Position numbers and translations under genes: made by a program
Notes under the pieces: generated by a model
Seen by the model: the letters and a program-made list of their open reading frames with translations, nothing else
The model's database searches: none
What the model was told of the DNA's origin: nothing
Shown here: positions 1 through 27,973 of the stretch, piece by piece
Numbering within the stretch: the stretch's first letter is position 1
How the letters are laid out: the number at the start of each line of letters is the position of its first letter
Source: an uncultured Opitutales bacterium
Lineage (GTDB): Bacteria > Verrucomicrobiota > Verrucomicrobiia > Opitutales > Intestinicryptomonadaceae
Assembly: GCA_934660865.1 (NCBI GenBank)
Contig: CAKUIA010000005.1
Span: 30,001-62,000 of the forward strand
Direction of reading: 5' to 3'
Length of the DNA stretch: 32,000 nucleotides

Positions 1-2256
1 GCGGTTGGCTATTCTTTGGACGAATTAAGAAACGACATTACAAAGGAAACCCCCGCAAGCTTCGAGCCGGCAATAGACTATGTTGTGGCAAAAGTTCCGC
101 GCTTTGCTTTCGAAAAATTTGCGGGCGCCGACAACACCCTTACAAGCTCGATGAAGAGCGTAGGCGAAGTTATGTCGATTGGCCGCAGCTTTAAGGAATG
201 TCTGCAAAAGGCGTTGCGCTCGCTTGAAATAGGCGCGCGCGGCTTGGGCGGCGGCGGCAAATTCGGCGGCCATGAAATTACCGATATGTCGGTTATAAGC
301 AAAGGGCTTGTAAGGCCTACCGCCGAAAGAATTTTCTATATGCGCTACGCCATTTTGGCGGGCATGACAACCGAGCAAATCAGCGACCTTACAAAGATAG
401 ACCCCTGGTTTGTCCGCGAAGTTGAAGGCATTGTGCGCATAGAACAAACATTGGCAAAAGAGGGGCTTTTGGGCCTTGATAAAGACCTGCTGGAAAAAGC
501 GAAAAAGGCGGGCTTTACCGATTTGCAAATCGCCACAATCTGCAATACGAAAATCAGGAACATCAAAAAACTGCGCGAAAATTTCGGCATAAATACGGTA
601 TACCGTTTGGTAGACACCTGCGCCGCCGAATTCGAGGCGTTTACCCCCTACTATTATTCTTCGTACGGGGTCGAAAACGAACTTAAGCCCAGCAATAAAA
701 AGAAGATTATGATTATAGGCGGCGGCCCCAACAGGATAGGCCAGGGCATAGAGTTCGACTACTGTTGCGTGCATGCGTCTTTTGCGCTTAGGGAAGCCGG
801 CTACGAAACGATAATGGTAAACTCGAACCCCGAAACGGTTTCGACCGACTACGACACTTCCGACAAGCTATTCTTCGAACCGCTAACGCTTGAAGACGTG
901 CTTGAAGTTTACAAACAAAACAAGTGCGACGGCGCAATAGTACAATTCGGCGGTCAAACCCCGCTAAACTTGGCGGCCGAATTGCAGGAAAACGGCGTAA
1001 ATATCATAGGCACATCGCCGGAGTCTATAGACGCCGCCGAAGACCGCGAAATTTTCAAACACATAATAGAAAAGTTGCACCTAAGGCAGCCCGTAAACGC
1101 AACGGCAACTACCCCCGAAGAAGCCTACAAGCTTGCGGGGCAGATAGGCTTTCCGATATTGCTTAGGCCCTCGTTCGTATTGGGCGGCAGGGGTATGTTT
1201 ATAGTATACGGCATGGACGACATGAAGAAGGTTATAAGAGACGCCTTCGAAGCCGCCCCCGGCAAGCCCGTATTGCTCGACAAATTCCTTGAAGACGCCA
1301 TAGAGCTTGACGTAGACGCGATTTCCGACGGCGAAACGACCGTTATAGGCGGCATGCTAGAGCACATCGAATACGCGGGCGTACACTCGGGCGACGCGGC
1401 AATGGTGCTGCCCCCGCACACCCTTTCGGAAAACGTGCTAAACGAAGTGCGCAAGGCTACCTACGACTTGGCCAAAGAGCTTAAGGTTGTGGGCCTAATG
1501 AACATTCAGTTTGCAATCAAAAAGGGCGAAGTCTACATTTTGGAGGTAAACCCGAGGGCTTCGAGAACGGTTCCGTTCACGTCGAAGGCCATAGGCGTGC
1601 CGCTGGCCAAGATTGCAGCCCGCGTAATGGCGGGCGAAAAGCTGAAAGACTTGGGCTTTACAAAAGAAGTGAAAATCCCCTACATAGCGGTAAAGGAAAG
1701 CGTATTCCCGTTTGTCCGCTTTAGCGGGGCTACCATTATGCTTAGCCCCGAAATGAGGTCTACGGGCGAAGTTATGGGGCTGGACAAAGACTTGGGAACG
1801 GCCTTTGCAAAGAGCCAGATTGCCGCGCAACCCGGCTTGCCGAGTTCGGGCAACGTATTCTTGTCGGTAAAAGACCACGACAAGGAAATGGCTGTAGAAA
1901 TCGCAAAATCGCTCGACAAACTCGGCTTTAAGATTTTCTCTACGGCGGGCACTGCAAAGCTTTTGGCCGACAACGGCATTCCCGTAACGAGAACATACAA
2001 GCTTAACGAAGGGGCGCGCCCGAACGTTATAGACATGATTAAGAACGACGAAATGTCGCTTATAATCAATACCCCATCGGGTATGTATCCTTTGCTCGAC
2101 GAAAACCTTATAAGGCAGGAGGCCCTCTTAAAGAAGGTTTGCATTATAACCACGATGATGGGCGCCTACGCCGCAATTAAGGGCATAGAGGCTATGCGAA
2201 GCAAAGACCTAAGCGTAAAATCGCTACAAGAATATATGCAACAGTTAAAGAAATAA
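1..2256 (+). CDS. carB: Carbamoyl-phosphate synthase large subunit, 5'-truncated by the window edge (about 750 C-terminal aa)
   Basis: Frame 1 is open from base 1. AVGYSLDELRNDITKETPASFEPAIDYVV is CarB-internal sequence, so the Met at 16 is not the start. Second ATP-grasp half present (KIMIIGGGPNRIGQGIEFDYCC, ILEVNPRASRTVPF), plus the C-terminal MGS-like allosteric domain (VFLSVKDHDK...LIINTP). Confidence 0.95.
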   Translation, partial: AVGYSLDELRNDITKETPASFEPAIDYVVAKVPRFAFEKFAGADNTLTSSMKSVGEVMSIGRSFKECLQKALRSLEIGARGLGGGGKFGGHEITDMSVISKGLVRPTAERIFYMRYAILAGMTTEQISDLTKIDPWFVREVEGIVRIEQTLAKEGLLGLDKDLLEKAKKAGFTDLQIATICNTKIRNIKKLRENFGINTVYRLVDTCAAEFEAFTPYYYSSYGVENELKPSNKKKIMIIGGGPNRIGQGIEFDYCCVHASFALREAGYETIMVNSNPETVSTDYDTSDKLFFEPLTLEDVLEVYKQNKCDGAIVQFGGQTPLNLAAELQENGVNIIGTSPESIDAAEDREIFKHIIEKLHLRQPVNATATTPEEAYKLAGQIGFPILLRPSFVLGGRGMFIVYGMDDMKKVIRDAFEAAPGKPVLLDKFLEDAIELDVDAISDGETTVIGGMLEHIEYAGVHSGDAAMVLPPHTLSENVLNEVRKATYDLAKELKVVGLMNIQFAIKKGEVYILEVNPRASRTVPFTSKAIGVPLAKIAARVMAGEKLKDLGFTKEVKIPYIAVKESVFPFVRFSGATIMLSPEMRSTGEVMGLDKDLGTAFAKSQIAAQPGLPSSGNVFLSVKDHDKEMAVEIAKSLDKLGFKIFSTAGTAKLLADNGIPVTRTYKLNEGARPNVIDMIKNDEMSLIINTPSGMYPLLDENLIRQEALLKKVCIITTMMGAYAAIKGIEAMRSKDLSVKSLQEYMQQLKK

Positions 2257-2260
2257 GACC

Positions 2261-3412
2261 ATGAACGACGCAGTATTGGCATTTGAAGACGGTAGCGTTT
2301 TTAGAGGCAAGGCCTTTGGCGCAAGAAAAACAACTTTGGGCGAAGCCATTTTCAACACATCGGAAATGGGCTATCAGGAATTGCTGACCGACCCGAGCAA
2401 CTACAAGCTTATTCTTACAATGACATTTGTGGAAATAGGCTGCTACGGAATAAACGAGGAAGACGTTGAAAGCGACTCCGTTAAAGTTTCGGGCCTTGTA
2501 GTTGCACAGGAATGCGAAACGCCCAGCAACTGGCGCAGCCAAATGTCGCTCGACGAATATCTTAAAAAGAACGATGTTCCCGGCATTAGCGGCATAGACA
2601 CGCGCGCAATCACAAAAAAGCTTAGGGTTGGCGGCGCGCTAAAGGCGTGTTTGTCTACCGAAGGCATTTCCGACAAAGAGGCCGTAGAGCTTGCCAGAGG
2701 CTGGCAGGGCATTGCGGGCGTAGACTATATCAAGGAAATTACCTGCAAAAAGCCCTATTATTTCGACACCAAAAAAATCAACATCGAGCCTTTCCAGCTC
2801 GGCGGCGTGCACATCAACAAAAAACCGCGCAAGGAAAAGCTGTTTAAGTGCGCGGCCGTAGACTACGGCGCAAAGCTTTCGATTTTAAAAAGCTTGGCCT
2901 ACAGCGGCTTCGACGTAACGGTGTTCCCCGCAACGGCCAGTGCCGAAGAAATTATGGAATTCGGCCCCGAGTGTCTCTTCCTTTCGAACGGCCCCGGAGA
3001 CCCTTCGGTTACAACCTATGCGCACAAAACCGTTGCAAAGCTTATACAGCACTACCCGACTTTCGGCGTATGCTTCGGCCACCAGGTTATAACGCACGCA
3101 ATAGGCGCAAAAACCTACAAGCTTAAGTTCGGCCACCACGGCGGCAACCACCCCGTAAAGAATCTCGACACGGGCAAAATTAACATCACCTCGCAAAACC
3201 ACGGGTTTGCGGCCGACGCAAAGTCAATCGAAAACGCGGGGGCTATTGTAAACGAAATAAACCTAAACGACCATACCGTAGAGGGCTTGCGCCACAAAGA
3301 CCTGCCTTTGTTCTCGGTGCAATACCACCCCGAATCCGCGCCCGGCCCCACAGACGCCTCGTACGTTTTCGACAATTTCTACGACATGGTGAAAAAAACT
3401 CTTGACAAATAG
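2261..3412 (+). CDS. carA: Carbamoyl-phosphate synthase small (glutamine amidotransferase) subunit
   Basis: 383 aa. CarA N-domain (FNTSEMGYQELLTDPSNYKLILTMTF) and class-I GATase region (GVCFGHQV, QYHPES). Starts 4 nt after the carB stop. Confidence 0.95.
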   Translation: MNDAVLAFEDGSVFRGKAFGARKTTLGEAIFNTSEMGYQELLTDPSNYKLILTMTFVEIGCYGINEEDVESDSVKVSGLVVAQECETPSNWRSQMSLDEYLKKNDVPGISGIDTRAITKKLRVGGALKACLSTEGISDKEAVELARGWQGIAGVDYIKEITCKKPYYFDTKKINIEPFQLGGVHINKKPRKEKLFKCAAVDYGAKLSILKSLAYSGFDVTVFPATASAEEIMEFGPECLFLSNGPGDPSVTTYAHKTVAKLIQHYPTFGVCFGHQVITHAIGAKTYKLKFGHHGGNHPVKNLDTGKINITSQNHGFAADAKSIENAGAIVNEINLNDHTVEGLRHKDLPLFSVQYHPESAPGPTDASYVFDNFYDMVKKTLDK

Positions 3413-3443
3413 CAAAAAAAGTAAATTTCTTTGTAAATACAAA

Positions 3444-3521
3444 ATGAAAATCGCGTTTACAAACAACAACTGGTGGCGTTGGTCGGCTAAAATATTAGGC
3501 GGCTGGCTATCCTATTGTTAA
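3444..3521 (+). CDS. trpL: trp operon leader peptide (25 aa, MKIAFTNNNWWRWSAKILGGWLSYC)
   Basis: Hand-translated short ORF, too short for the ORF track. It has 4 Trp codons in 25, three of them in WWRW at 3471-3482. It lies in the 254-nt carA-trpB gap, directly upstream of a terminator/antiterminator pair and of trpB. Confidence 0.8.
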   Translation: MKIAFTNNNWWRWSAKILGGWLSYC

Positions 3522-3582
3522 AACGCACGGCGTTTGGGTTTACAAAAAATAGAACCGAAAAAAGAGGATAAGGCTAACCGCC
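3498..3582 (+). promoter_or_regulatory. Candidate antiterminator of the trp attenuator (3498-3512 pairs with 3566-3582)
   Basis: Hand pairing of GGCGGCTGGCTATCC with GGATAAGGCTAACCGCC gives 12 Watson-Crick and 2 G.U pairs, one mismatch and one 2-nt bulge. The 3' arm overlaps the left arm of the terminator. The 5' arm lies inside the last codons of the leader ORF. Confidence 0.6.
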
Positions 3583-3598
3583 CTATCCTCTTTTTTTT
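3561..3598 (+). terminator. Rho-independent terminator (trp attenuator)
   Basis: Stem GAGGATA(A)GG 3564-3573 pairs with CCTATCCTC 3582-3590 (9 bp with one bulged A). An 8-T run follows at 3591-3598 and an A-run precedes it. It sits about 70 nt upstream of the trpB ATG. Confidence 0.85.
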
Positions 3599-3666
3599 CG
3601 CAACAAACACATTCCTAAAAAATTTAAAAAGCACACAAAAATTTAAAACAAAAAAGGCACAACAAA

Positions 3667-4857
3667 ATGGACAGCAACTACAAGGTAGACAACAACGGTT
3701 ATTACGGCGAATTCGGCGGAGCGTACATTCCCGAAATTTTGCGCAAAAATGTGGAGCAACTGCAAGAGGCATTCTTTTCGGCAATGAAAGACCAAAGCTT
3801 TTTGGACGAATTTTACGCCCTTTTGCGCGACTATGTGGGAAGGCCCAGCCCCCTTTATTTCGCAAAGAAGCTCAGCGAAAAATACGGGGCCAAAATATAC
3901 CTGAAAAGGGAGGACTTAAACCACACCGGCTCGCACAAAATAAACAACGCCATAGGCCAAATTTTGCTGGCAAAAAGAATGGGCAAAACCAGAATTTTGG
4001 CCGAAACGGGCGCGGGCCAGCACGGGGTTGCCACGGCAACCGCCTGCGCGCTTATGGGGCTAGACTGCACCGTATTTATGGGCGAAACCGACATTAAACG
4101 CCAAAAGGCAAATGTCGAAAAAATGCAAATGCTGGGGGCTAAAGTATACTCGGTTACAAGCGGCAACAAAACCCTTAAAGACGCAACAAACGAGGCAATA
4201 AGATACTGGTGCTGCAACCCCGACACCTACTACCTTATAGGCTCGGTTGTAGGCCCGCACCCCTATCCCGAACTTGTAGCGAAGTTCCAGTCGGTTATAA
4301 GCGAAGAGATAAAAAAGCAGCTTCTCGAAAAAGAGGGGCGCGACTACCCCGACTATGTAATAGCCTGCGTTGGCGGCGGCAGCAACGCGGCGGGCGCTTT
4401 CTACAACTTTTTGGACAACCCAAAAGTTAAGCTTATAGCGGCCGAAGCGGGCGGCATGGGCGTACAAACAGGCAAAAGCGCCGCCACTTTGGCCCTGGGC
4501 AGCCTGGGCGTTTTGCACGGCTCTAAAAGCATTGTAATTCAGGACAAAAACGGCCAGGTAATAGAGCCCTATTCGATTTCGGCCGGGCTGGACTACCCAG
4601 GCATTGGCCCGCTTCACGCATATTTGGCAAAGGAAAAGAAAATGACGCCCTGCGCCGTAAACGACGACGAAGCCCTGCAGGCCGCCTATTTGGCGACGCT
4701 AAAAGAGGGCATTATTCCCGCGCTGGAATCGGCGCATGCCCTTGCAATGCTCGAAAAGATTGCCTTTAAGCCGACCGACATTGTGGTTGTAAACGTATCG
4801 GGCCGCGGCGACAAGGATATGCCGACATACTTGGCAAACAGAAAGGTTGTTAAATAA
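3667..4857 (+). CDS. trpB: Tryptophan synthase beta chain (TrpB1 type)
   Basis: 396 aa. [13 protein letters not shown]-lysine motif [29 protein letters not shown]. Confidence 0.95.
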
Positions 4858-4858
4858 A

Positions 4859-6256
4859 ATGGTTAAACTTACCCAAATTGTACGCAAAGTTGCAGGCGAC
4901 TTGCAAACGCCCGTAGGCCTCTACCTAAAAATAAGGGATATAGGCGAAAAGTCGGCGCTGCTGGAAAGCTCGGATTTTCACACCCAAAACAACAGCTATT
5001 CTTTTGTGTGCGCAAAGCCCATAGGCCATTTTAAGCTGGACAAAAACGTGTGCGAAACGGCGTATCCGAACGGCGAAACCGTACGCGAAACCGTGCAGAG
5101 CCATTCTTCTGCAATATCGCTGCTAAAAAAATATTTGGCGAACTACCGGTTCGAAGGCGGCAACCCCCTGCCATCGAACGGGTTTTTCGGCTACACTTCG
5201 TACGACTGCGCCGAGCATTTCGACGCCGTAAAATTCGCCAAGCGCGCCCCCAACGAAAAGGACGCCCCCGAAATGTACTATGTGCTATACCGCTTTACGG
5301 TTTCGCTAAACCATTTCAATAACGAGCTTGTTGTCGTCGAAAACCTGCCCGAGGGCGAAAGCTCGCAAATGGACGAATTTTTGGCCGTAATACACAACAA
5401 CAGTTTTGCCGAATATTCGTTTGAAAGGGTGGGCGCCCCCAACTACGAAACTTCGGGCGAAAAGTTTATGCAAAACGTAGCCGAGGCCATAAAGAGGATA
5501 AAGCTCGGCGACATTTTCCAGATTGTGATTTCGCGCGGGTTTAACACCCGTTTTAAGGGCGACGACTTTAAGGTATACCGCGCCTTGCGCCGCATAAACC
5601 CTTCGCCGTACCTCTTCTATTTCGATTTCGGCGGCTTTAGAATTTTCGGGTCTTCGCCCGAAACGCACTTAAAGATTGTGGGCGACACCGCAAGCATAGA
5701 CCCCATTGCGGGCACGTTCAAAAGAACGGGCAACGACGAAAAAGACTCGCTTTTGGCCGCGGCCCTTTTGAAAGACCCGAAGGAAAATTCCGAGCACACA
5801 ATGCTTGTAGATTTGGCGCGAAACGACCTTTCGAGAAGCTGCCTGCACACAAAGGTTGAATTTTTAAAGCAAATTCAATACTACTCGCACCTGATACACA
5901 TGGTTTCGAGAGTGTCGGCAAAAGTGCCCAGCCCCGACAAAAAGCTAGACGTTCTCGCCGACGCATTCCCAGCCGGCACGCTAAGCGGCGCTCCGAAAAT
6001 AAAGGCCATGCAAATTATAGACGAGCTTGAAAGCGACAGGCGTTCGGTATACGGCGGCTGCATAGGCTTTATAGGCTTTAACGGCGACTTAAACCAGGCA
6101 ATAACCATAAGGACATTCTTCAGCAAAAACAACACCCTGTACTTCAAGGCGGGGGCCGGCATTGTTGTAGACAGCAAGCCCGAAAACGAATTGCAGGAAA
6201 TAAACAACAAACTCGGCGCTTTAATGGCGGCGCTCGACAAGGCCTCGGAGGAATAG
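4859..6256 (+). CDS. trpE: Anthranilate synthase component I
   Basis: TrpE/chorismate-binding family (LLESSD, NPSPYLFYFDF, GTLSGAPKIKAMQII, YGGCIGFIGFNGD). The track start at 4847 is a TTG overlapping trpB. I prefer the ATG at 4859, 1 nt after the trpB stop. Confidence 0.9.
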   Translation: MVKLTQIVRKVAGDLQTPVGLYLKIRDIGEKSALLESSDFHTQNNSYSFVCAKPIGHFKLDKNVCETAYPNGETVRETVQSHSSAISLLKKYLANYRFEGGNPLPSNGFFGYTSYDCAEHFDAVKFAKRAPNEKDAPEMYYVLYRFTVSLNHFNNELVVVENLPEGESSQMDEFLAVIHNNSFAEYSFERVGAPNYETSGEKFMQNVAEAIKRIKLGDIFQIVISRGFNTRFKGDDFKVYRALRRINPSPYLFYFDFGGFRIFGSSPETHLKIVGDTASIDPIAGTFKRTGNDEKDSLLAAALLKDPKENSEHTMLVDLARNDLSRSCLHTKVEFLKQIQYYSHLIHMVSRVSAKVPSPDKKLDVLADAFPAGTLSGAPKIKAMQIIDELESDRRSVYGGCIGFIGFNGDLNQAITIRTFFSKNNTLYFKAGAGIVVDSKPENELQEINNKLGALMAALDKASEE

Positions 6257-6260
6257 CAAA

Positions 6261-6827
6261 ATGAAAACCCTTTTGTTCGACAATTACGACTCTTTTACAT
6301 ACAACATTGCAAACGCCCTTAGGGAGCTTGGCATAGAAAACCTAAGCGTTGCGCGAAACGACAAAATATCGGTCGAAGAAATGAGAAAGTTCGACAAGAT
6401 AATATTTTCGCCCGGGCCGGGCATTCCCAAAGACGCGGGCGTTATGGAAAGCGCAATAAAAGAGCTTGCCTCCGAAAAAACGATATTGGGCGTATGCTTG
6501 GGCCACCAGGCAATAGGCGAAGTTTTCGGCGCAAAGCTGGAAAACCTAAGCCGCCCCTTCCATGCGGTGCAGTCGCAAATGAAAATCGTAAAAACAACCC
6601 CCCTGTTTAACGGCCTAAGCGACGGATTTTTGGCGGGGCGCTACCACTCGTGGGTGGTATCCAAAGAAAATTTCCCCGACTGTCTGGAAATTAGCGCGGT
6701 AGAGGAAAACGGCCAAATTATGGCGCTGCGCCACAAACAATACAATGTGTTCGGGCTGCAATTCCACCCCGAATCCATACTTACCCCCGAAGGGGCCAAA
6801 ATATTGGACAACTTTTTAAAGCTCTAA
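6261..6827 (+). CDS. trpG: Anthranilate synthase component II (glutamine amidotransferase)
   Basis: 188 aa class-I GATase (FDNYDSFTYN, GVCLGHQAIG, LQFHPESILT). Confidence 0.92.
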   Translation: MKTLLFDNYDSFTYNIANALRELGIENLSVARNDKISVEEMRKFDKIIFSPGPGIPKDAGVMESAIKELASEKTILGVCLGHQAIGEVFGAKLENLSRPFHAVQSQMKIVKTTPLFNGLSDGFLAGRYHSWVVSKENFPDCLEISAVEENGQIMALRHKQYNVFGLQFHPESILTPEGAKILDNFLKL

Positions 6828-6831
6828 AAAA

Positions 6832-7827
6832 ATGAAGGCTATTTTAACAAAACTTTTTTCGGGCAAAACGCTAAGCTTCGACGAGGCAAAAAACGTAATG
6901 CTGGGCGTTTCCACCCACGGCTATAACAACGCGCAGCTGGCGGCGTTTATGTCGGTTTTCCTTATGCGCGCCATTGCCCCGCAAGAGCTTTCGGGCTTTT
7001 CGGCGGCAATACGCGAAACGCAAACCAAGCTTAACATAAACGCCGACAACGCGGTAGACATTGTGGGCACGGGCGGCGACGGCAAAGACACATTCAATAT
7101 CTCTACCCTTTCGTGCTTCGTTTTGGCGGGAGCCTCCTACAAGGTTGTAAAGCACGGCAACTACGGCGCAAGCTCGGCAAGCGGCGCCTCGAATGCGCTG
7201 GAAAACTGCGGGGCAAAATTCACAAACAACCCCGACATTCTGCAGCGCTCTTTGGACGAATCGAATATGCTTTATATGCACGCGCCCCTTTTCAATTCGG
7301 CGTTAAAGGTTGTAGCCCCCGCAAGAAAGGAGCTGGGAGTAAGAACGTTCTTTAACCTGTTGGGCCCCCTGCTAAACCCGCTTAAGCCAAAAAATATGCT
7401 GCTTGGCGTATACAGCCTAAAGCTTGTAAGGCTGTATAAATACATACTCGAAAACACGGTTGACAACTACGCCATTGTGCATTCGCTAGACGGCTACGAC
7501 GAAATTTCGCTTACGGGCAAATTCAAAATTGCGTCGTCTAAAAACGAGGGGGTTTTCGCCCCCGAAGACCTTGGGCTGCCGCGCTGCAAACAAAGCGATT
7601 TGGGCTGCCAAAGCAACGCGCAAATTGCCAAGGAAATTTTTATAGACGTTTTAAACTGCAACGCAACGCCGCAGCAGGAAAACTGTGTTTTGGCAAATTC
7701 GGCGGCAGCAATAGGCATACTCGAAAAAGGCAAAAGCTTTGCGGAATGCCTTGAAATTGCGCGCGAAAGCCTGCGCGGCAAAAAGGCGCTGGCGTGCTTT
7801 AAAAAATATTTGGAGATAAACAAATGA
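6832..7827 (+). CDS. trpD: Anthranilate phosphoribosyltransferase
   Basis: 331 aa. DIVGTGGDGKDTFNIST and KHGNYGASSASG motifs typical of TrpD. Confidence 0.92.
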   Translation: MKAILTKLFSGKTLSFDEAKNVMLGVSTHGYNNAQLAAFMSVFLMRAIAPQELSGFSAAIRETQTKLNINADNAVDIVGTGGDGKDTFNISTLSCFVLAGASYKVVKHGNYGASSASGASNALENCGAKFTNNPDILQRSLDESNMLYMHAPLFNSALKVVAPARKELGVRTFFNLLGPLLNPLKPKNMLLGVYSLKLVRLYKYILENTVDNYAIVHSLDGYDEISLTGKFKIASSKNEGVFAPEDLGLPRCKQSDLGCQSNAQIAKEIFIDVLNCNATPQQENCVLANSAAAIGILEKGKSFAECLEIARESLRGKKALACFKKYLEINK

Positions 7828-8597
7828 ACATTCTCGAAACGATTTTGGAAAACAAAAAAGCCGAAGTTGCAGCCGACAAAAAAAGAGTGGCAATTTCCGA
7901 CTTTAACGGCTTTGAATATTTTTCGAGAAAGTGCATTTCGCCGAAGGCAGCGTTTTTAAAAAACAAAACCTCTCTTATTTGCGAATTTAAGCGCAAGTCG
8001 CCCTCAAAGGGCGACATTGCCCCGAACGCCTCTCCCGAAACGCAGATTCCGCAATATATAAAAGGCGGGGCCGCCGCCCTTTCGGTGCTTACCGACAACA
8101 AGTTTTTCGGCGGCTCGGCCAACGACCTGCTTTGCGCCAGAAAGCTTGCAAACATTCCCGTTTTGCGCAAAGACTTTGTTGTAGACGAATACCAAATATA
8201 CCAGGCAAAGGCTTTGGGCGCCGACTTTGTTTTGCTGATAGCGGCCGCCCTAGGCAAAACGCAGTGCAAAGACTACGCCGACATTGCCCACGGCTTGGGC
8301 ATGGAGGTTTTAACCGAATTGCACGATGTTTTAGAGCTTGAAAAGCTGCCCGACTCTTCGGATTTGGCGGGCGTAAACAACCGCAACCTGGCAAACTTTA
8401 AGTGCTCGTTTCAAAGCGCAAAAGATTTGGCAAAGCTTATAGGCAAAAACTTTGTAAAGGTTGCCGAAAGCTCGATAAAAACGCCCGAAGACGTGCGCGA
8501 ATTAAAGAGCATGGGCTTTTCGGCATTTCTCATAGGCGAAAGCCTTATGCGCAGCGGCAATCCAGCGGCAACAATCCAGGAATTTTTAAAGGAATGA
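7824..8597 (+). CDS. trpC: Indole-3-glycerol-phosphate synthase
   Basis: 257 aa. ICEFKRKSPSKG, LSVLTD..FFGGS, LRKDF motifs. ATGA overlap with the trpD stop. Confidence 0.92.
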   Translation: MNILETILENKKAEVAADKKRVAISDFNGFEYFSRKCISPKAAFLKNKTSLICEFKRKSPSKGDIAPNASPETQIPQYIKGGAAALSVLTDNKFFGGSANDLLCARKLANIPVLRKDFVVDEYQIYQAKALGADFVLLIAAALGKTQCKDYADIAHGLGMEVLTELHDVLELEKLPDSSDLAGVNNRNLANFKCSFQSAKDLAKLIGKNFVKVAESSIKTPEDVRELKSMGFSAFLIGESLMRSGNPAATIQEFLKE

Positions 8598-9211
8598 AAA
8601 TAAAAGTTTGCGGATTAAAAGACGCCGAAAACGCGACAAATGTTGCAAAGCTAAATGCGGATATGCTGGGCTTTATCTTCTACGAAAAGTCGCCCCGCAA
8701 CGCGTTCGGCATTAAGGCAAGTTTTATAAAAAGCCTAAATGCCGCGCAAAAGGTTGCCGTTTTTGTAGACGAATCCATCGAAAATATCCGCAAAATATGC
8801 GCCGAAAGAGACATTAAAATAGTGCAGCTTCACGGCGGCGAAAGCCCCGAATTTTGCAAAGAGGCAAAGGCTCTGGGCTTTGTTGTAATAAAGGCCTTTC
8901 AAATTTACGACAAAGGCGATTTCGAAAAAATTGCCGACTACGCTTCGGTTTGCGACTATGCGTTGCTCGACACCAAGTGCGACACCTACGGCGGCAGCGG
9001 CAAAAAATTCAACTGGGGATTGCTTGGAACATACCGATGGCAACTGCCCTTTATTTTAAGCGGCGGCATTTGCGAAGACGACGCCGAAGATATTTTGAGC
9101 ATAAAAAACAAAATGTTTTGCGGGGTAGATTTAAACAGCCGCTTTGAAAACGGACAAATGCTAAAAGACTGCAACAAACTTAAAAACTTTATGGAAAAAA
9201 TTAGAGGATAA
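8594..9211 (+). CDS. trpF: Phosphoribosylanthranilate isomerase
   Basis: MKIKVCGLKDAENA... is the typical TrpF N-terminus. The track ORF from 8402 is an out-of-context K/R-rich extension inside trpC. The ATG at 8594 overlaps the trpC stop (ATGA). Confidence 0.9.
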   Translation: MKIKVCGLKDAENATNVAKLNADMLGFIFYEKSPRNAFGIKASFIKSLNAAQKVAVFVDESIENIRKICAERDIKIVQLHGGESPEFCKEAKALGFVVIKAFQIYDKGDFEKIADYASVCDYALLDTKCDTYGGSGKKFNWGLLGTYRWQLPFILSGGICEDDAEDILSIKNKMFCGVDLNSRFENGQMLKDCNKLKNFMEKIRG

Positions 9212-9215
9212 AAAA

Positions 9216-9989
9216 ATGAACAAACTAAACGAATTGCTCGCAAAAAAAGACAAGAACCTGCTTTCGGTATATTTTACCGCGGGCTACCCGAACTTGAACG
9301 ACACTACAAAGATAATAGAGGCCCTCGACAAAAACGGCGTAGACCTTATAGAAATAGGCCTGCCCTTTTCCGACCCCATTGCCGACGGGCAAACCATTCA
9401 GGAAAGCTCGCATTTGGCCCTCGTAAACGGAATGACAACACAGCTTATGTTCGAGCAGCTTAAAACGCTGAAAAACACGAATGCGGTTTTAATTTTAATG
9501 ACCTATTTAAACTTGGTTGTGCACTACGGCTTTGAAAACACATTAAAGATGTGCAAAGAGTGCAACATTTCGGCGATGATTTTGCCCGACTTGCCGCTTG
9601 AAGAATACGAGCGCGACTACAAAGCCCTTTGCGAAAAATACGGCATAAAAATCGTTATGCTCATAAGCCCCGAAAGCTCAGACGAAAGGATAAGGGCCAT
9701 AGACAACGCAACAGATTCGTTTATCTATATGGTTTCAAGCGCGTCGGTAACGGGCACAAAAGACGATTTCGACGAAAGGCAGTGCGCATATTTTAAACGC
9801 ATTAGCGATATGAACCTAAAAAACAAACGCCTTATAGGCTTCGGCATTTCCAACAAAAAAACAAAGGATAAGGCCAACAAATATTCTTCGGGCGTTATAA
9901 TAGGCAGCGCCTTTATAAAAGCATTGGCGCAAGAACCGAACAACCCCGAAAAGGCGGTTAAAATTTTTCTTGAAAAACTGGAAAAGTAA
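9216..9989 (+). CDS. trpA: Tryptophan synthase alpha chain
   Basis: 257 aa. YFTAGYP, DLIEIGLPFSDPIADGQTIQ, GFGIS motifs. AGAGGA Shine-Dalgarno-like sequence upstream. Confidence 0.93.
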   Translation: MNKLNELLAKKDKNLLSVYFTAGYPNLNDTTKIIEALDKNGVDLIEIGLPFSDPIADGQTIQESSHLALVNGMTTQLMFEQLKTLKNTNAVLILMTYLNLVVHYGFENTLKMCKECNISAMILPDLPLEEYERDYKALCEKYGIKIVMLISPESSDERIRAIDNATDSFIYMVSSASVTGTKDDFDERQCAYFKRISDMNLKNKRLIGFGISNKKTKDKANKYSSGVIIGSAFIKALAQEPNNPEKAVKIFLEKLEK

Positions 9990-16969: not shown

Positions 16970-16991
16970 TTTTTTTAGGAAAGCACACTAC

Positions 16992-17027
16992 AAAAAGCGT
17001 TTGCCGAGCTTGGCAAACGCTTTTTTT
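16992..17027 (+). terminator. Rho-independent terminator of the GH2 gene
   Basis: GCGTTTGCC 16997-17005 pairs with GGCAAACGC 17012-17020 (9 bp, 6-nt loop), followed by 7 T. Confidence 0.85.
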
Positions 17028-17057
17028 ATGCAAGATATTCCGCGCAAACTTTGGCGC

Positions 17058-17096
17058 AAAAAACGCCCGCCCGAATAAAAAATCGGGTGGGCGTTT
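17058..17096 (-). terminator. Rho-independent terminator of the UAP1-like gene
   Basis: An 11-12 bp GC-rich stem (17063-17074 with 17083-17094, one G.U), followed on the minus strand by 6 T. It lies 22 nt after the stop at 17118. Confidence 0.8.
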
Positions 17097-17117
17097 GCAA
17101 AAAATTTTGCAATTATG

Positions 17118-26112: not shown

Positions 26113-27804
26113 CTATTCGCCTGCACGGCTTAAATTTACCGCCGAAACCAGCGCCTTTAAGCCCGCAAGCTCTATGCTTGGGTCTACACCGCAGGCCCAG
26201 AAAAGCCCGCCCGAATTTTTCTCTATGCAAATGTAGGCGGCCGAATTTGAGGCCGACCCCGCCCCTATTGCATGCGAGCGGTAGTCTTTTACCTTAAAAT
26301 CTTTTAGCCCGGCCTTTTCCATTGCATTTACAAAGGCGTTGATTGGCCCGTTGCCGGAGGCCGCAATTTCCGCCGCAATGCCGTTTACGGTAATATTTGC
26401 AGCAAGGTTAACGTTCGAGCTGTCGGCGTCGGAAAGCTTTTCCACCTTATGGCTTATAAGCTTTATCGGGCTTGAAAGGTTTACAAACCTGTCGCAAAAC
26501 AGCTTGTATATTTCGTTTGCCGAAAGCTCCTTGCCGAGTTTGTCGGCCTGGGCATTGACATAGTTGCCAACTTCGGGGTGCATGGCCTTTGGCAGGTCGA
26601 AGCCGAAATCGGTATTCAAGATATAGGCTACGCCGCCCTTGCCGCTTTGCGAATTTATGCGTATAATGGCCTCGTAGTCTCTGCCTATGTCTTTGGGGTC
26701 TATCAGCAAATAGGGAACCTCCCAAGCGCAGTTTTCGTCGCCCGTCTTTTTGCGCATGTCCATACCCTTTTTAATGGCGTCTTGGTGCGAGCCGCTAAAG
26801 GCGGTAAATACCAAGTCGCCCGCATAGGGCAGGCGCGGCGGCACTTTCATTGAGGTGCATTTTTCGTATTCGCGCACAATTTCGGGCAGGTTCGAAAAAT
26901 CAAGCTCGGGATCTACGCCCTCGGCAAACATATTTAGGGCAACGTTTACAATGTCGAGGTTGCCCGTTCTTTCGCCGTTGCCGAAAAGCGTGCCCTCTAC
27001 CCTGTCGGCACCCGCAAGCAGGCCAAGCTCGGTAGAGGCAACGCCCGTGCCCCTGTCGTTGTGGGTGTGCACGCTAATAAGCACGGTTTGCCTGTCCGAA
27101 ATATGGCGGCTTACCCACTCTATTTGGTCGGCATAAACGTTGGGCATTGCATACTGCACGGTTTCGGGCAAGTTTATTATAATTTTGTTGTCTACCGTAG
27201 GCTGCCAAACCGCCTTTACCGCCTCGCATATTTCAAGCGCAAATTCAACTTCGGTATCCGAAAAGCTTTCGGGCGAATATTCAAGCGTAATTTTTGTGCC
27301 CTCTTTTTCGGCGGCTTTGGCGTATTCTTTAACAATCTTTACGCCGTTTACGGCCAAGTCGACAATCTCGGCCTTGCTCATTTTAAATGTAATTTTGCGC
27401 TGCAGTACCGATGTGCTGTTGTATAGGTGCACAATGGCGTGTTTTGCGCCCTTTAGGGCGTCGAATGTGCGCTTTATCTGCGCGGGTTTGCTTTGCGTTA
27501 AAACCTGAAGCGCAACGCCTTCGGGCACAAGATTGCCCTCTATAAGCCTTCTTAAAAAGTTGTATTCGGTGTCGCTTGCGGCGGGAAAGCCCACTTCTAT
27601 CTGCTTAAAGCCAACTTTTAGCAAGGTGTTGTACAACTCAAGCTTTTCCTCTATATTCATAGGGGTGGCCAATGCCTGGTTGCCGTCGCGCAAATCTACA
27701 CTGCACCAAATCGGCGCTTTTGTAATATGCGCCGAGGGCCACTTTCTGTCGGGCAGGCTTACAAAGCTGCTCCTTTTGTATTTTCTCAACAGTTCCTTGT
27801 TCAT
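26113..27804 (-). CDS. leuA: 2-isopropylmalate synthase, long (type 2, actinobacterial-like) form
   Basis: 563 aa. RKWPSAHITKAPIWCSVDLRDGNQAL, HTHNDRGTGVA, GNGERTGN, and the C-terminal LeuA allosteric/dimerisation domain. Confidence 0.93.
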   Translation of the reverse strand: MNKELLRKYKRSSFVSLPDRKWPSAHITKAPIWCSVDLRDGNQALATPMNIEEKLELYNTLLKVGFKQIEVGFPAASDTEYNFLRRLIEGNLVPEGVALQVLTQSKPAQIKRTFDALKGAKHAIVHLYNSTSVLQRKITFKMSKAEIVDLAVNGVKIVKEYAKAAEKEGTKITLEYSPESFSDTEVEFALEICEAVKAVWQPTVDNKIIINLPETVQYAMPNVYADQIEWVSRHISDRQTVLISVHTHNDRGTGVASTELGLLAGADRVEGTLFGNGERTGNLDIVNVALNMFAEGVDPELDFSNLPEIVREYEKCTSMKVPPRLPYAGDLVFTAFSGSHQDAIKKGMDMRKKTGDENCAWEVPYLLIDPKDIGRDYEAIIRINSQSGKGGVAYILNTDFGFDLPKAMHPEVGNYVNAQADKLGKELSANEIYKLFCDRFVNLSSPIKLISHKVEKLSDADSSNVNLAANITVNGIAAEIAASGNGPINAFVNAMEKAGLKDFKVKDYRSHAIGAGSASNSAAYICIEKNSGGLFWACGVDPSIELAGLKALVSAVNLSRAGE

Positions 27805-27833: not shown

Positions 27834-27875
27834 AAAAAAAGGCAACGCTATTTTATATAATATGCGCCGCCTTTT
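27834..27875 (-). terminator. Rho-independent terminator (leu attenuator)
   Basis: Minus strand reads AAAA-GGCGGCGC (27871-27864), 15-nt AU loop, GCGTTGCC (27848-27841; 6 GC and 2 G.U pairs), then 7 T (27840-27834). It ends 29 nt before the leuA ATG. Confidence 0.7.
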
Positions 27876-27916
27876 CTTTTAAAAAGTGTGTTTTTTTAAA
27901 TGCAAAATCAGCGCAC
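27862..27916 (-). promoter_or_regulatory. Candidate antiterminator of the leu attenuator (27916-27904 pairs with 27875-27862)
   Basis: Hand pairing of GTGCGCTGATTTT (last two sense codons, stop and 4 nt of the leader) with AAAAGGCGGCGCAT gives 9 Watson-Crick and 3 G.U pairs and 1 mismatch. It sequesters the left arm of the terminator. Confidence 0.5.
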
Positions 27917-27973
27917 TGCAACGGCTTCGAGACGAAGTCGCAACAATAGCCCGGATAATGCAATGTTTTTCAT
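27908..27973 (-). CDS. leuL: leu leader peptide (21 aa, MKNIALSGLLLRLRLEAVAVR)
   Basis: Hand-translated short ORF, not in the track. It has 6 Leu codons in 21 (tta, cta, ttg, ttg, ctt, ctc) clustered as LSGLLLRLRL. It lies directly upstream of a terminator/antiterminator and of leuA. The ATG is 1 nt after the phosphohexomutase stop. Confidence 0.65.
   Translation of the reverse strand: MKNIALSGLLLRLRLEAVAVR

Follow-up and report, generated by a model that had tools for sequence, protein, structure and literature searches.

A probable tryptophan leader-peptide attenuator upstream of a trpB-first operon in an Opitutales bacterium

Introduction

Transcription attenuation by a translated leader peptide is a textbook mechanism, and the element described here does not challenge the current understanding of it. 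The element lies in a stretch of 32,000 nucleotides (nt) from an uncultured Opitutales bacterium (contig CAKUIA010000005.1, positions 30,001 to 62,000), referred to below as the window, and occupies the gap between carA and a complete trpBEGDCFA operon. It is composed of a short open reading frame (ORF) rich in tryptophan (Trp) codons and an intrinsic terminator. Opitutales is an order of Verrucomicrobiota. All positions are those of the window, and the features are collected in Table 1.

The closest described system is RF01692 'Bacteroid-trp', which Table 1 of Weinberg 2010 lists as a Bacteroidetes RNA of probable cis-regulatory function (PMC2864571). In the transcriptome of B. thetaiotaomicron, some long 5' untranslated regions (UTRs) contain small ORFs 'reminiscent of leader peptides' (PMC7366714). 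Bacteroidetes were outside the coverage of Naville & Gautheret 2010. For trp leader attenuation in Corynebacterium glutamicum and Streptomyces venezuelae, some experimental support is cited in a passage of PMC4833913. A preliminary description of the window, made from the letters, had regarded attenuation outside Proteobacteria as mostly predicted. This has to be corrected in view of the actinobacterial support and of the Bacteroidetes kind being known already.

A Trp-rich leader ORF and three mutually exclusive helices

The leader ORF has four Trp codons among its 25 codons and is situated directly upstream of trpBEGDCFA. Three of these codons are in the WWRW motif, and the fourth is at 3504-3506. 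Among 293 short ORFs starting with ATG on both strands of the window, this was the sole one with at least three Trp in four residues. Such a Trp-dense ORF did not arise in any of 20000 dinucleotide-preserving shuffles of the carA-trpB gap. The start context, CAAA-ATG, was like that of other genes in the window.

An unambiguous intrinsic terminator is present between the leader ORF and trpB. In its stem, 3564-3570 and 3572-3574 are paired with 3580-3582 and 3584-3590. The calculated energy was -13.8 kcal/mol for the core, and -20.0 kcal/mol if the A/U extension was included.

Segment 2 may pair with segment 3 to form an antiterminator, which excludes the terminator. The pairing of 3498-3512 with 3566-3582 comprised 12 Watson-Crick and 2 G.U pairs, and an extra A-U pair (3513-3565) was possible. 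The energy of this duplex was -21.7 kcal/mol.

A third helix, the 1:2 hairpin, was part of the minimum free energy (MFE) fold. It pairs 3472-3477, 3481-3485 and 3487-3490 with 3495-3498, 3500-3504 and 3506-3511, and was worth -17.0 kcal/mol alone. The Trp codons are in its 5' half, and the antiterminator strand constitutes its 3' half. Its formation precludes that of the antiterminator, and it shares positions with the regulatory codons. All four segments of a classical attenuator are thus present, in the pairings 1:2, 2:3 and 3:4. The whole region (3440-3600) folded with an MFE of -51.6 kcal/mol (z = -5.0), and none of 200 shuffles was equally stable.

The preliminary description had reported the 25-codon ORF with four Trp codons and WWRW at 3471-3482 in the 254-nt gap, a strong intrinsic terminator followed by 8 T (3591-3598), and the antiterminator pairing. 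All of these were found where it had placed them, the 12 Watson-Crick and 2 G.U pairs exactly so. The 1:2 hairpin was missing from it.

Effect of a ribosome on the predicted fold

A ribosome was represented by blocking 30 nt around the A site, and the RNA was then refolded. With the ribosome absent, the 1:2 hairpin and the terminator formed. When the A site was placed at W10, W11 or W13 and the transcript was cut at any position from 3582 to 3590, such that the U-tract is inside the polymerase, the antiterminator was the MFE structure. The energy was -28.6 kcal/mol, versus -26.6 kcal/mol when the terminator was forced. A ribosome placed at the stop codon, where it covers 3504-3533, let the terminator fold.

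The masking check put forward in the preliminary description therefore gave a switch of the fold. Its proposal was that a stall frees 3498-3512 and that a ribosome at the stop codon permits the terminator. These folds and the comparative evidence below favour it.

We consider the element to be, very probably, a ribosome-mediated leader-peptide transcription attenuator, in which the supply of charged tRNA-Trp would set the read-through into trpBEGDCFA. Transcription would start at a promoter that overlaps the carA end, or would read in from carBA, and a ribosome would translate the leader. When Trp is scarce, the ribosome would stall at W10, W11 or W13, and its footprint would cover segment 1 (about 3472-3490) and block 1:2 pairing. 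Segment 2, left free, could pair with 3565-3582 once the 5' arm and the loop of the terminator have emerged. The antiterminator so formed would block the terminator and let the polymerase proceed into trpB. When Trp is plentiful, the ribosome would reach the stop codon and cover the 3' half of segment 2, or 1:2 would form again after its release. The terminator (3564-3590 and U8) would then form, and transcription would stop near 3598. Translation of the ORF, stalling, coupling of ribosome and polymerase, dependence on Trp and the promoter are what we infer.

Conservation and covariation in Bacteroidales

A genome scan and a metagenome scan with TrpB yielded 160 loci. Three of them (L001, L002 and L081) belonged to the clade of the window, with TrpB 98-99% identical, and two of these were labelled Opitutales bacterium. 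The next TrpB matches in these scans were at most 72% identical and came from Bacteroidota.

A short ORF with WW or WWW, together with a terminator, was present in 77 trpB-first loci (66 distinct sequences), 73 of them from Bacteroidales and 4 from the window clade. One of the relative leaders, for example, reads MNLSVVNKFWWWHLQLQQS. A hairpin and T-run were located 38-72 nt past the leader stop codon in all 77, and the gene order was trpB-first wherever it was readable. The comparison with trpB-first relatives, proposed in the preliminary description, thus turned out in favour of the element.

The gene carA was upstream of the leader solely in the window clade. The leader unit therefore travels with trpB, and not with carA. 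The leaderless loci, from Cytophagales and Flavobacteriales, had trpG upstream of trpB, and are therefore uninformative on the absence of the leader in those orders.

Covariation in the Bacteroidales family was assessed in an alignment of 64 sequences (A1). In the terminator, 96% of the cells were paired, with compensatory changes in 11 of 13 pairs. The 1:2 helix (CUUAC..GUGAG and an inner stem) was 82% paired, with six compensatory pairs. The antiterminator was formed by the leader sequence GUCGUGAGU and the terminator loop plus 3' arm, ACUCACGAC. It was 85% paired, versus 23-49% when the partner columns were slid. Its central pair was GC in 48 sequences, AU in 12 and GU in 4, and unpaired in none. 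All three helices were therefore compensated in Bacteroidales, and the ORF, the Trp codons and the architecture are conserved in the clade and in the 73 Bacteroidales loci.

The UGA stop codon of the Bacteroidales leaders sits within segment 2. The terminator loop, ACUCAC, was unusually conserved, as expected from its pairing with segment 2. One subgroup (L164; TrpB of 406 amino acids, 72% identical) had unrelated sequences with the same geometry, the antiterminator being CGGUGUA with UACACCG.

In two loci of Candidatus Azobacteroides, a termite symbiont (L024 2028-2176 and L106 1528-1676), a leader-model match of 79 bits was not adjacent to the TrpB match but some 825 nt further upstream. A longer spacer, or something else, separates the leader from trpB there.

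Constraint within the window clade

The four genomes of the window clade were aligned (A3), and the variable columns were counted. The leader ORF had 2 of 78 (K2R and a synonymous change at N9), and the terminator had 1 of 41, so that leader and terminator were about 97% invariant. The 31 nt before the ATG had 1 variable column. From the stop codon to the terminator there were 4 of 37, three of which were in a single hairpin loop. This hairpin (3521-3535) had an invariant stem, and its loop differed in the clade (ACG, AAA or AAAA). The spacer between the terminator and trpB had 30 of 68 (44%). On this comparison, the tenfold contrast with the spacer is direct evidence that leader and terminator are under selection in this lineage.

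These counts also bear on a simpler explanation, in which the hairpin and U8 are a constitutive terminator of carB-carA, the short ORF is a chance frame and the trpB promoter is in the spacer (3599-3666). No other terminator was found from the carA stop (3412) to the hairpin, which looks like a terminator from either strand, given its A- and U-tracts; there is also no clear promoter upstream of the leader. A chance frame is, however, hard to reconcile with the shuffling result for the Trp-dense ORF, and a carBA terminator with the leader and terminator found before trpB in 73 Bacteroidales loci, none with carA upstream. The supposed promoter would also be in the variable part of the gap, while the leader is nearly invariant. 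We regard this explanation as quite improbable. The two roles are compatible, since the attenuator may also end carBA transcripts.

Segments 2 (16 nt) and 3 (18 nt) were wholly invariant in the four genomes. The invariance of both antiterminator strands is consistent with the attenuator model, but does not discriminate.

Sister lineages were sought in the genome scan, the metagenome scan and a search of 5.8 billion proteins; only TrpB sequences of 98-99% or of at most 73% identity were found. One protein, P0034 (L161 173-1615), looked like an intermediate relative, as its bit score had been inflated by an internal duplication. It was set aside, being a Bacteroidales (Parabacteroides-like) TrpB. 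It was called as 480 amino acids with residues about 224-311 duplicated, which is probably an assembly artefact.

Points that weigh against attenuation

Several observations weigh against reading the element as an attenuator. When the whole U-tract was free, the terminator fold was the stabler (-34.4 versus -28.3 kcal/mol), so that antitermination would have to be kinetic, as in other attenuators. Of the 66 distinct leader sequences, 62 retained the terminator in the equilibrium MFE with a stalled ribosome, so that the switch is not demonstrated by thermodynamics alone. The stop codon is 7 nt past segment 2, so that, of the 16 nt of this segment, only about 9 would be hidden by a terminating ribosome. 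Scans for sigma-70 and Bacteroidetes promoters did not reveal a convincing candidate for the leader. The nearest TrpB relative outside the clade was at most 73% identical, and its helices were different. The window-type helices are represented by four near-identical genomes only. Finally, an experimental test of the Bacteroidetes trp leader family was not found in the searchable literature; full-text searches gave no paper on a Bacteroidetes trp leader, and RF01692 came to light through the Rfam scan of the relatives.

The antiterminator of the window was only modestly unusual by itself. Its pairing strength was matched in 22 of 200 shuffled leaders, and 46 of 63566 genomic 19-mers paired equally well with 3563-3584. 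This background gives about a 4% chance of an equally good antiterminator in the about 60 available positions. It is the features in combination, and the comparative evidence, that make the case for attenuation. Pairing of leader and terminator was also scored locus by locus with RNAduplex against dinucleotide shuffles. With z about 0 to -2, this had too little discriminating power, and the alignment covariation and the genomic 19-mer background were used in its place.

The marginal excess over chance leaves room for a variant of the attenuator, in which the working antiterminator is GGCGG (3498-3502) with CCGCC (3578-3582), or some other pairing, and not the 15-pair helix. It would be in line with the Bacteroidales antiterminator, where segment 2 pairs with the terminator loop and 3' arm and not with the 5' arm, and the four near-identical genomes put the long helix beyond the reach of covariation. 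Five base pairs would, however, be too weak by themselves to close a loop of about 75 nt, and it was the full helix that was the MFE structure under ribosome masking. The invariance of the complete segments 2 and 3 likewise speaks for the full helix. The shorter antiterminator is thus unlikely, and we retain the 15-pair helix in the attenuator model.

Relation to catalogued RNA families

The leader region did not match any Rfam family at the gathering threshold or at E <= 10. RF01692 itself did not match the window copy, either at E <= 10 (3380-3700) or at the gathering threshold (whole window), and the L001 copy was also unmatched.

The same model was above its gathering threshold (49 bits) in 4 of 17 Bacteroidales loci scanned (L003, 76.8; L017, 79.6; L006, 70.3; and L023, 69 bits). 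Seven loci were rescanned at E <= 10. Three (L063, L008 and L016) were just under the threshold (44-48 bits), and L004, L025 and L087 remained unmatched, though they are clear family members. The RF01692 model is therefore narrow.

A broader covariance model (R1) was built from 62 Bacteroidales leaders (alignment A2). Its best match in the window was 3447-3599, at 25.1 bits (E about 1.6e-4) with the 1:2 helix unaligned; plain terminators scored 19-27 bits. The three other copies of the clade (L001, L002 and L081) scored 29-30 bits, and held-out Bacteroidales leaders 57-82 bits. The score of the window copy is at noise level, and its membership in the Bacteroid-trp family is unproven at the sequence level.

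A second R1 match (16987-17116, minus strand, 18.9 bits) was rejected as a leader, being tandem terminators in a convergent intergenic region. This region (16970-17117) is flanked by a GH2 gene on the plus strand and a UDPGP gene on the minus strand, and has two tandem hairpin and T-run terminators on the minus strand.

In context, the window copy resembles RF01692: it is 5' of a trpB-first operon, with the trpB-E-G-D-C-F-A order of the leader-bearing Bacteroidales loci. In taxon it does not, as the nearest genomes are labelled Opitutales bacterium and RF01692 is of Bacteroidetes, although the TrpB itself is Bacteroidota-like. The preliminary description had called the element untracked. This holds in so far as no Rfam model detects the window copy; the kind itself is catalogued as RF01692.

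The same searches bear on whether a trans-acting factor (a TRAP-like protein, an uncharged tRNA acting on a T-box or a small RNA) sets the switch instead of a translating ribosome. Other phyla regulate trp operons in this way, and nothing specific in the locus points to it. The region had no T-box or other Rfam match even at E <= 10, and the 254-nt gap had only 3 GAG/TAG triplets, versus about 11 (G/U)AG repeats needed for TRAP; the preliminary description had likewise seen neither feature. Moreover, what is conserved is a reading frame with Trp codons, and at N9 the clade has a synonymous change. Control by a trans-acting factor is most improbable on this evidence, and a translating ribosome is the preferred agent of the switch.

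Gene context and origin of the operon

The window begins inside carB. The carB-carA order is the reverse of the usual carAB; the same order was seen in a lineage with a 72%-identical CarA (L165 and L166).

Between the carA stop codon and the leader, no terminator was found. The attenuator may therefore also end carBA transcripts. The uncertain promoter region has near-matches to the Bacteroidetes -7 motif TAnnTTTG, TAAATTTC (3422-3429) and TTTCTTTG (3426-3433). The exact motif was located 25-41 nt upstream of the leader ATG in most Bacteroidales copies, and the window clade had one-mismatch versions only.

Gene starts in the window (e.g. 3444, 3667, 6261, 7824, 18524 and 27804) were A-rich before the start codon, often with CAAA-ATG. 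Shine-Dalgarno-like motifs at these starts were sparse and inconsistent.

The protein clusters of GroEL, TrpB and CarA from the window carry the NCBI name Opitutales bacterium, and are found on contigs of up to 527 kb. The named relatives of TrpB were all Bacteroidota (at most 73% identity), while those of LeuA (26113-27804) were all Verrucomicrobiota. This suggested that the trp operon and its leader were acquired horizontally. The lineage with the 72%-identical CarA has carB-carA and lacks the trp operon downstream. The trpB-first operon and leader would then have come from Bacteroidales and been inserted behind carA.

Table 1. Features of the window, with strand (plus or minus)
Feature	Position	Strand	Remarks
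Leader ORF (trpL-like)	3444..3521	+	25 codons and stop, MKIAFTNNNWWRWSAKILGGWLSYC; ATG 3444, TAA 3519-3521
Regulatory Trp codons W10, W11, (R12), W13 (WWRW)	3471..3482	+	codons 3471-3473, 3474-3476, 3480-3482
1:2 hairpin (anti-antiterminator, possibly also a pause hairpin)	3472..3511	+	part of MFE fold
Segment 2, antiterminator 5' strand	3498..3513	+	GGCGGCUGGCUAUCCU
Two small hairpins enclosed by the antiterminator	3521..3556	+	3521-3535 and 3537-3556
Intrinsic terminator (attenuator)	3558..3598	+	A-tract 3558-3563, stem-loop 3564-3590, U8 3591-3598
Segment 3, antiterminator 3' strand	3565..3582	+	terminator 5' arm, loop and first 3 nt of 3' arm
A-rich spacer, trpB 5' UTR	3599..3666	+	apparently free to evolve
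Possible promoter region, uncertain	3402..3433	+	TTGACA 3402-3407; near-matches to Bacteroidetes -7 motif
carB	16-2256	+	window begins inside gene; 4 nt before carA
carA, carbamoyl-phosphate synthase small subunit	2261..3412	+	NCBIfam TIGR01368, E = 4e-133
carA-trpB gap	carA end 3412 to trpB start 3667	+	254 nt
trpB	3667-4857	+	NCBIfam match
trpE	4847-6256	+	NCBIfam match
trpG	6261-6827	+	NCBIfam match
trpD	6832-7827	+	NCBIfam match
trpC	7824-8597	+	NCBIfam match
trpF	within ORF 8402-9211	+	NCBIfam match
trpA	9216-9989	+	NCBIfam match; last gene of complete trpBEGDCFA operon, 3667..9989
Candidate leucine (Leu) leader attenuator	27834-27973	minus	upstream of leuA (26113-27804, minus)
Leu leader ORF	27973-27908	minus	MKNIALSGLLLRLRLEAVAVR; 6 Leu in 21 residues
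Leu leader terminator	27871-27864 x 27848-27841, then T7	minus	GGCGGCGC x GCGTTGCC

A second, Leu-rich leader upstream of leuA

A second candidate attenuator was found upstream of leuA on the minus strand. Its Leu-rich ORF begins 1 nt past the stop of a PGM-like gene lying upstream. The Leu codons are covered by a hairpin, and a terminator follows; the fold of the element has z = -3.9. Rfam gave no family for it at the gathering threshold.

A homologous Leu leader, MKKFLALSLLLIRLRLELGNGQL, with a terminator was present before leuA in a metagenome-assembled genome (MAG) of Verrucomicrobiaceae (L170 1366-1500), whose LeuA was 66% identical. It was absent in two other relatives, L167 (from a cluster 69% identical to one labelled Opitutales) and L169. 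These sequences suggest a conserved, apparently uncatalogued family of Leu attenuators in Verrucomicrobiota. With the Leu leader common to the window and the Verrucomicrobiaceae MAG, leader-peptide attenuation appears to be native to this phylum.

Discussion

The trp and Leu leaders may be brought together in one history, which we offer tentatively and would rate as somewhat short of probable. A Bacteroidales trpBEGDCFA operon would have moved, with its attenuator, into an Opitutales gut lineage and settled behind carBA. The recipient phylum would already have used leader-peptide attenuation natively. The RNA would then have been rebuilt almost from scratch, with the Trp-codon sensor retained. 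In the remodelling after transfer, the peptide would have lengthened, the helices would have taken on new sequences, and the antiterminator would have come to engulf the 5' arm and loop of the terminator.

If this is true, these would be the first leader-peptide attenuators described for Verrucomicrobiota, as far as we found, and a case study of an attenuator surviving cross-phylum transfer. It would mean that a regulatory leader can cross phyla with its operon, and that strong selection on it can persist through the remodelling of its RNA sequence. Verrucomicrobiota would become the fifth major lineage with leader-peptide attenuation, after Proteobacteria, Actinobacteria, some Firmicutes and, by prediction, Bacteroidetes. 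Attenuators in Bacteroidetes/Chlorobi are said to appear already in a 2004 abstract by Vitreschak and co-workers.

There is also a consequence for annotation. Most Bacteroidales trpB leaders, and all of those of the window clade, escape RF01692, so that such leaders stay unannotated in gut metagenomes.

Comparison with known attenuators

With trpL of E. coli (RF00513, Trp_leader), the window element shares the 1:2, 2:3 and 3:4 logic and the tandem Trp codons in segment 1. In both, the antiterminator uses the terminator 5' arm, and the terminator forms with the ribosome at the stop codon and without translation. The window copy differs in having no RF00513 match at E <= 10 and no sequence similarity, in its length (25 versus 14 codons) and in WWRW instead of WW. 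It also has no Shine-Dalgarno sequence, the first gene is trpB and not trpE, and the antiterminator engages the terminator loop too.

The actinobacterial trp attenuators are alike in being cases of trp leader-peptide attenuation outside Proteobacteria. They belong to another phylum, their sequences are unrelated, and they are partly backed by experiment, whereas the window element is known from its sequence alone.

The likeness to RF01692 is greater. In both cases the immediate downstream neighbour is a trpB-first operon of the trpB-E-G type. In the short ORF of both, WW(W) occurs some 8-10 codons past the ATG and follows a stretch of Asn/Lys-rich codons. The 5' half of the window leader resembles leaders of the RF01692 type (TTACAAAYAAC...TGGTGGCG; IAFTNNNWWR in the window, LFITNNAWWR in L016). 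The 1:2 hairpin begins at or just past the Trp codons, the terminator is 38-72 nt past the stop codon, and segment 2 is complementary to the terminator loop.

On the other hand, the window leader is longer (25 codons versus mostly 15-21) and has a fourth Trp. Its stop codon is past segment 2, whereas that of Bacteroidales is inside, and the helix sequences are unrelated. With its 15 pairs, the antiterminator of the window occupies the terminator 5' arm and loop as well as the top of the 3' arm; its Bacteroidales counterpart, of about 9 pairs, occupies the loop and 3' arm. The two also differ in host, which is Verrucomicrobiota for the window copy and Bacteroidota for RF01692.

The kind of element is thus already catalogued and its mechanism textbook. 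What is new for specialists is limited to the proposed cross-phylum transfer, the remodelling of the RNA and the Verrucomicrobial Leu leader. The window copy is a divergent relative of Bacteroid-trp, undetected by Rfam, in a Verrucomicrobial genome.

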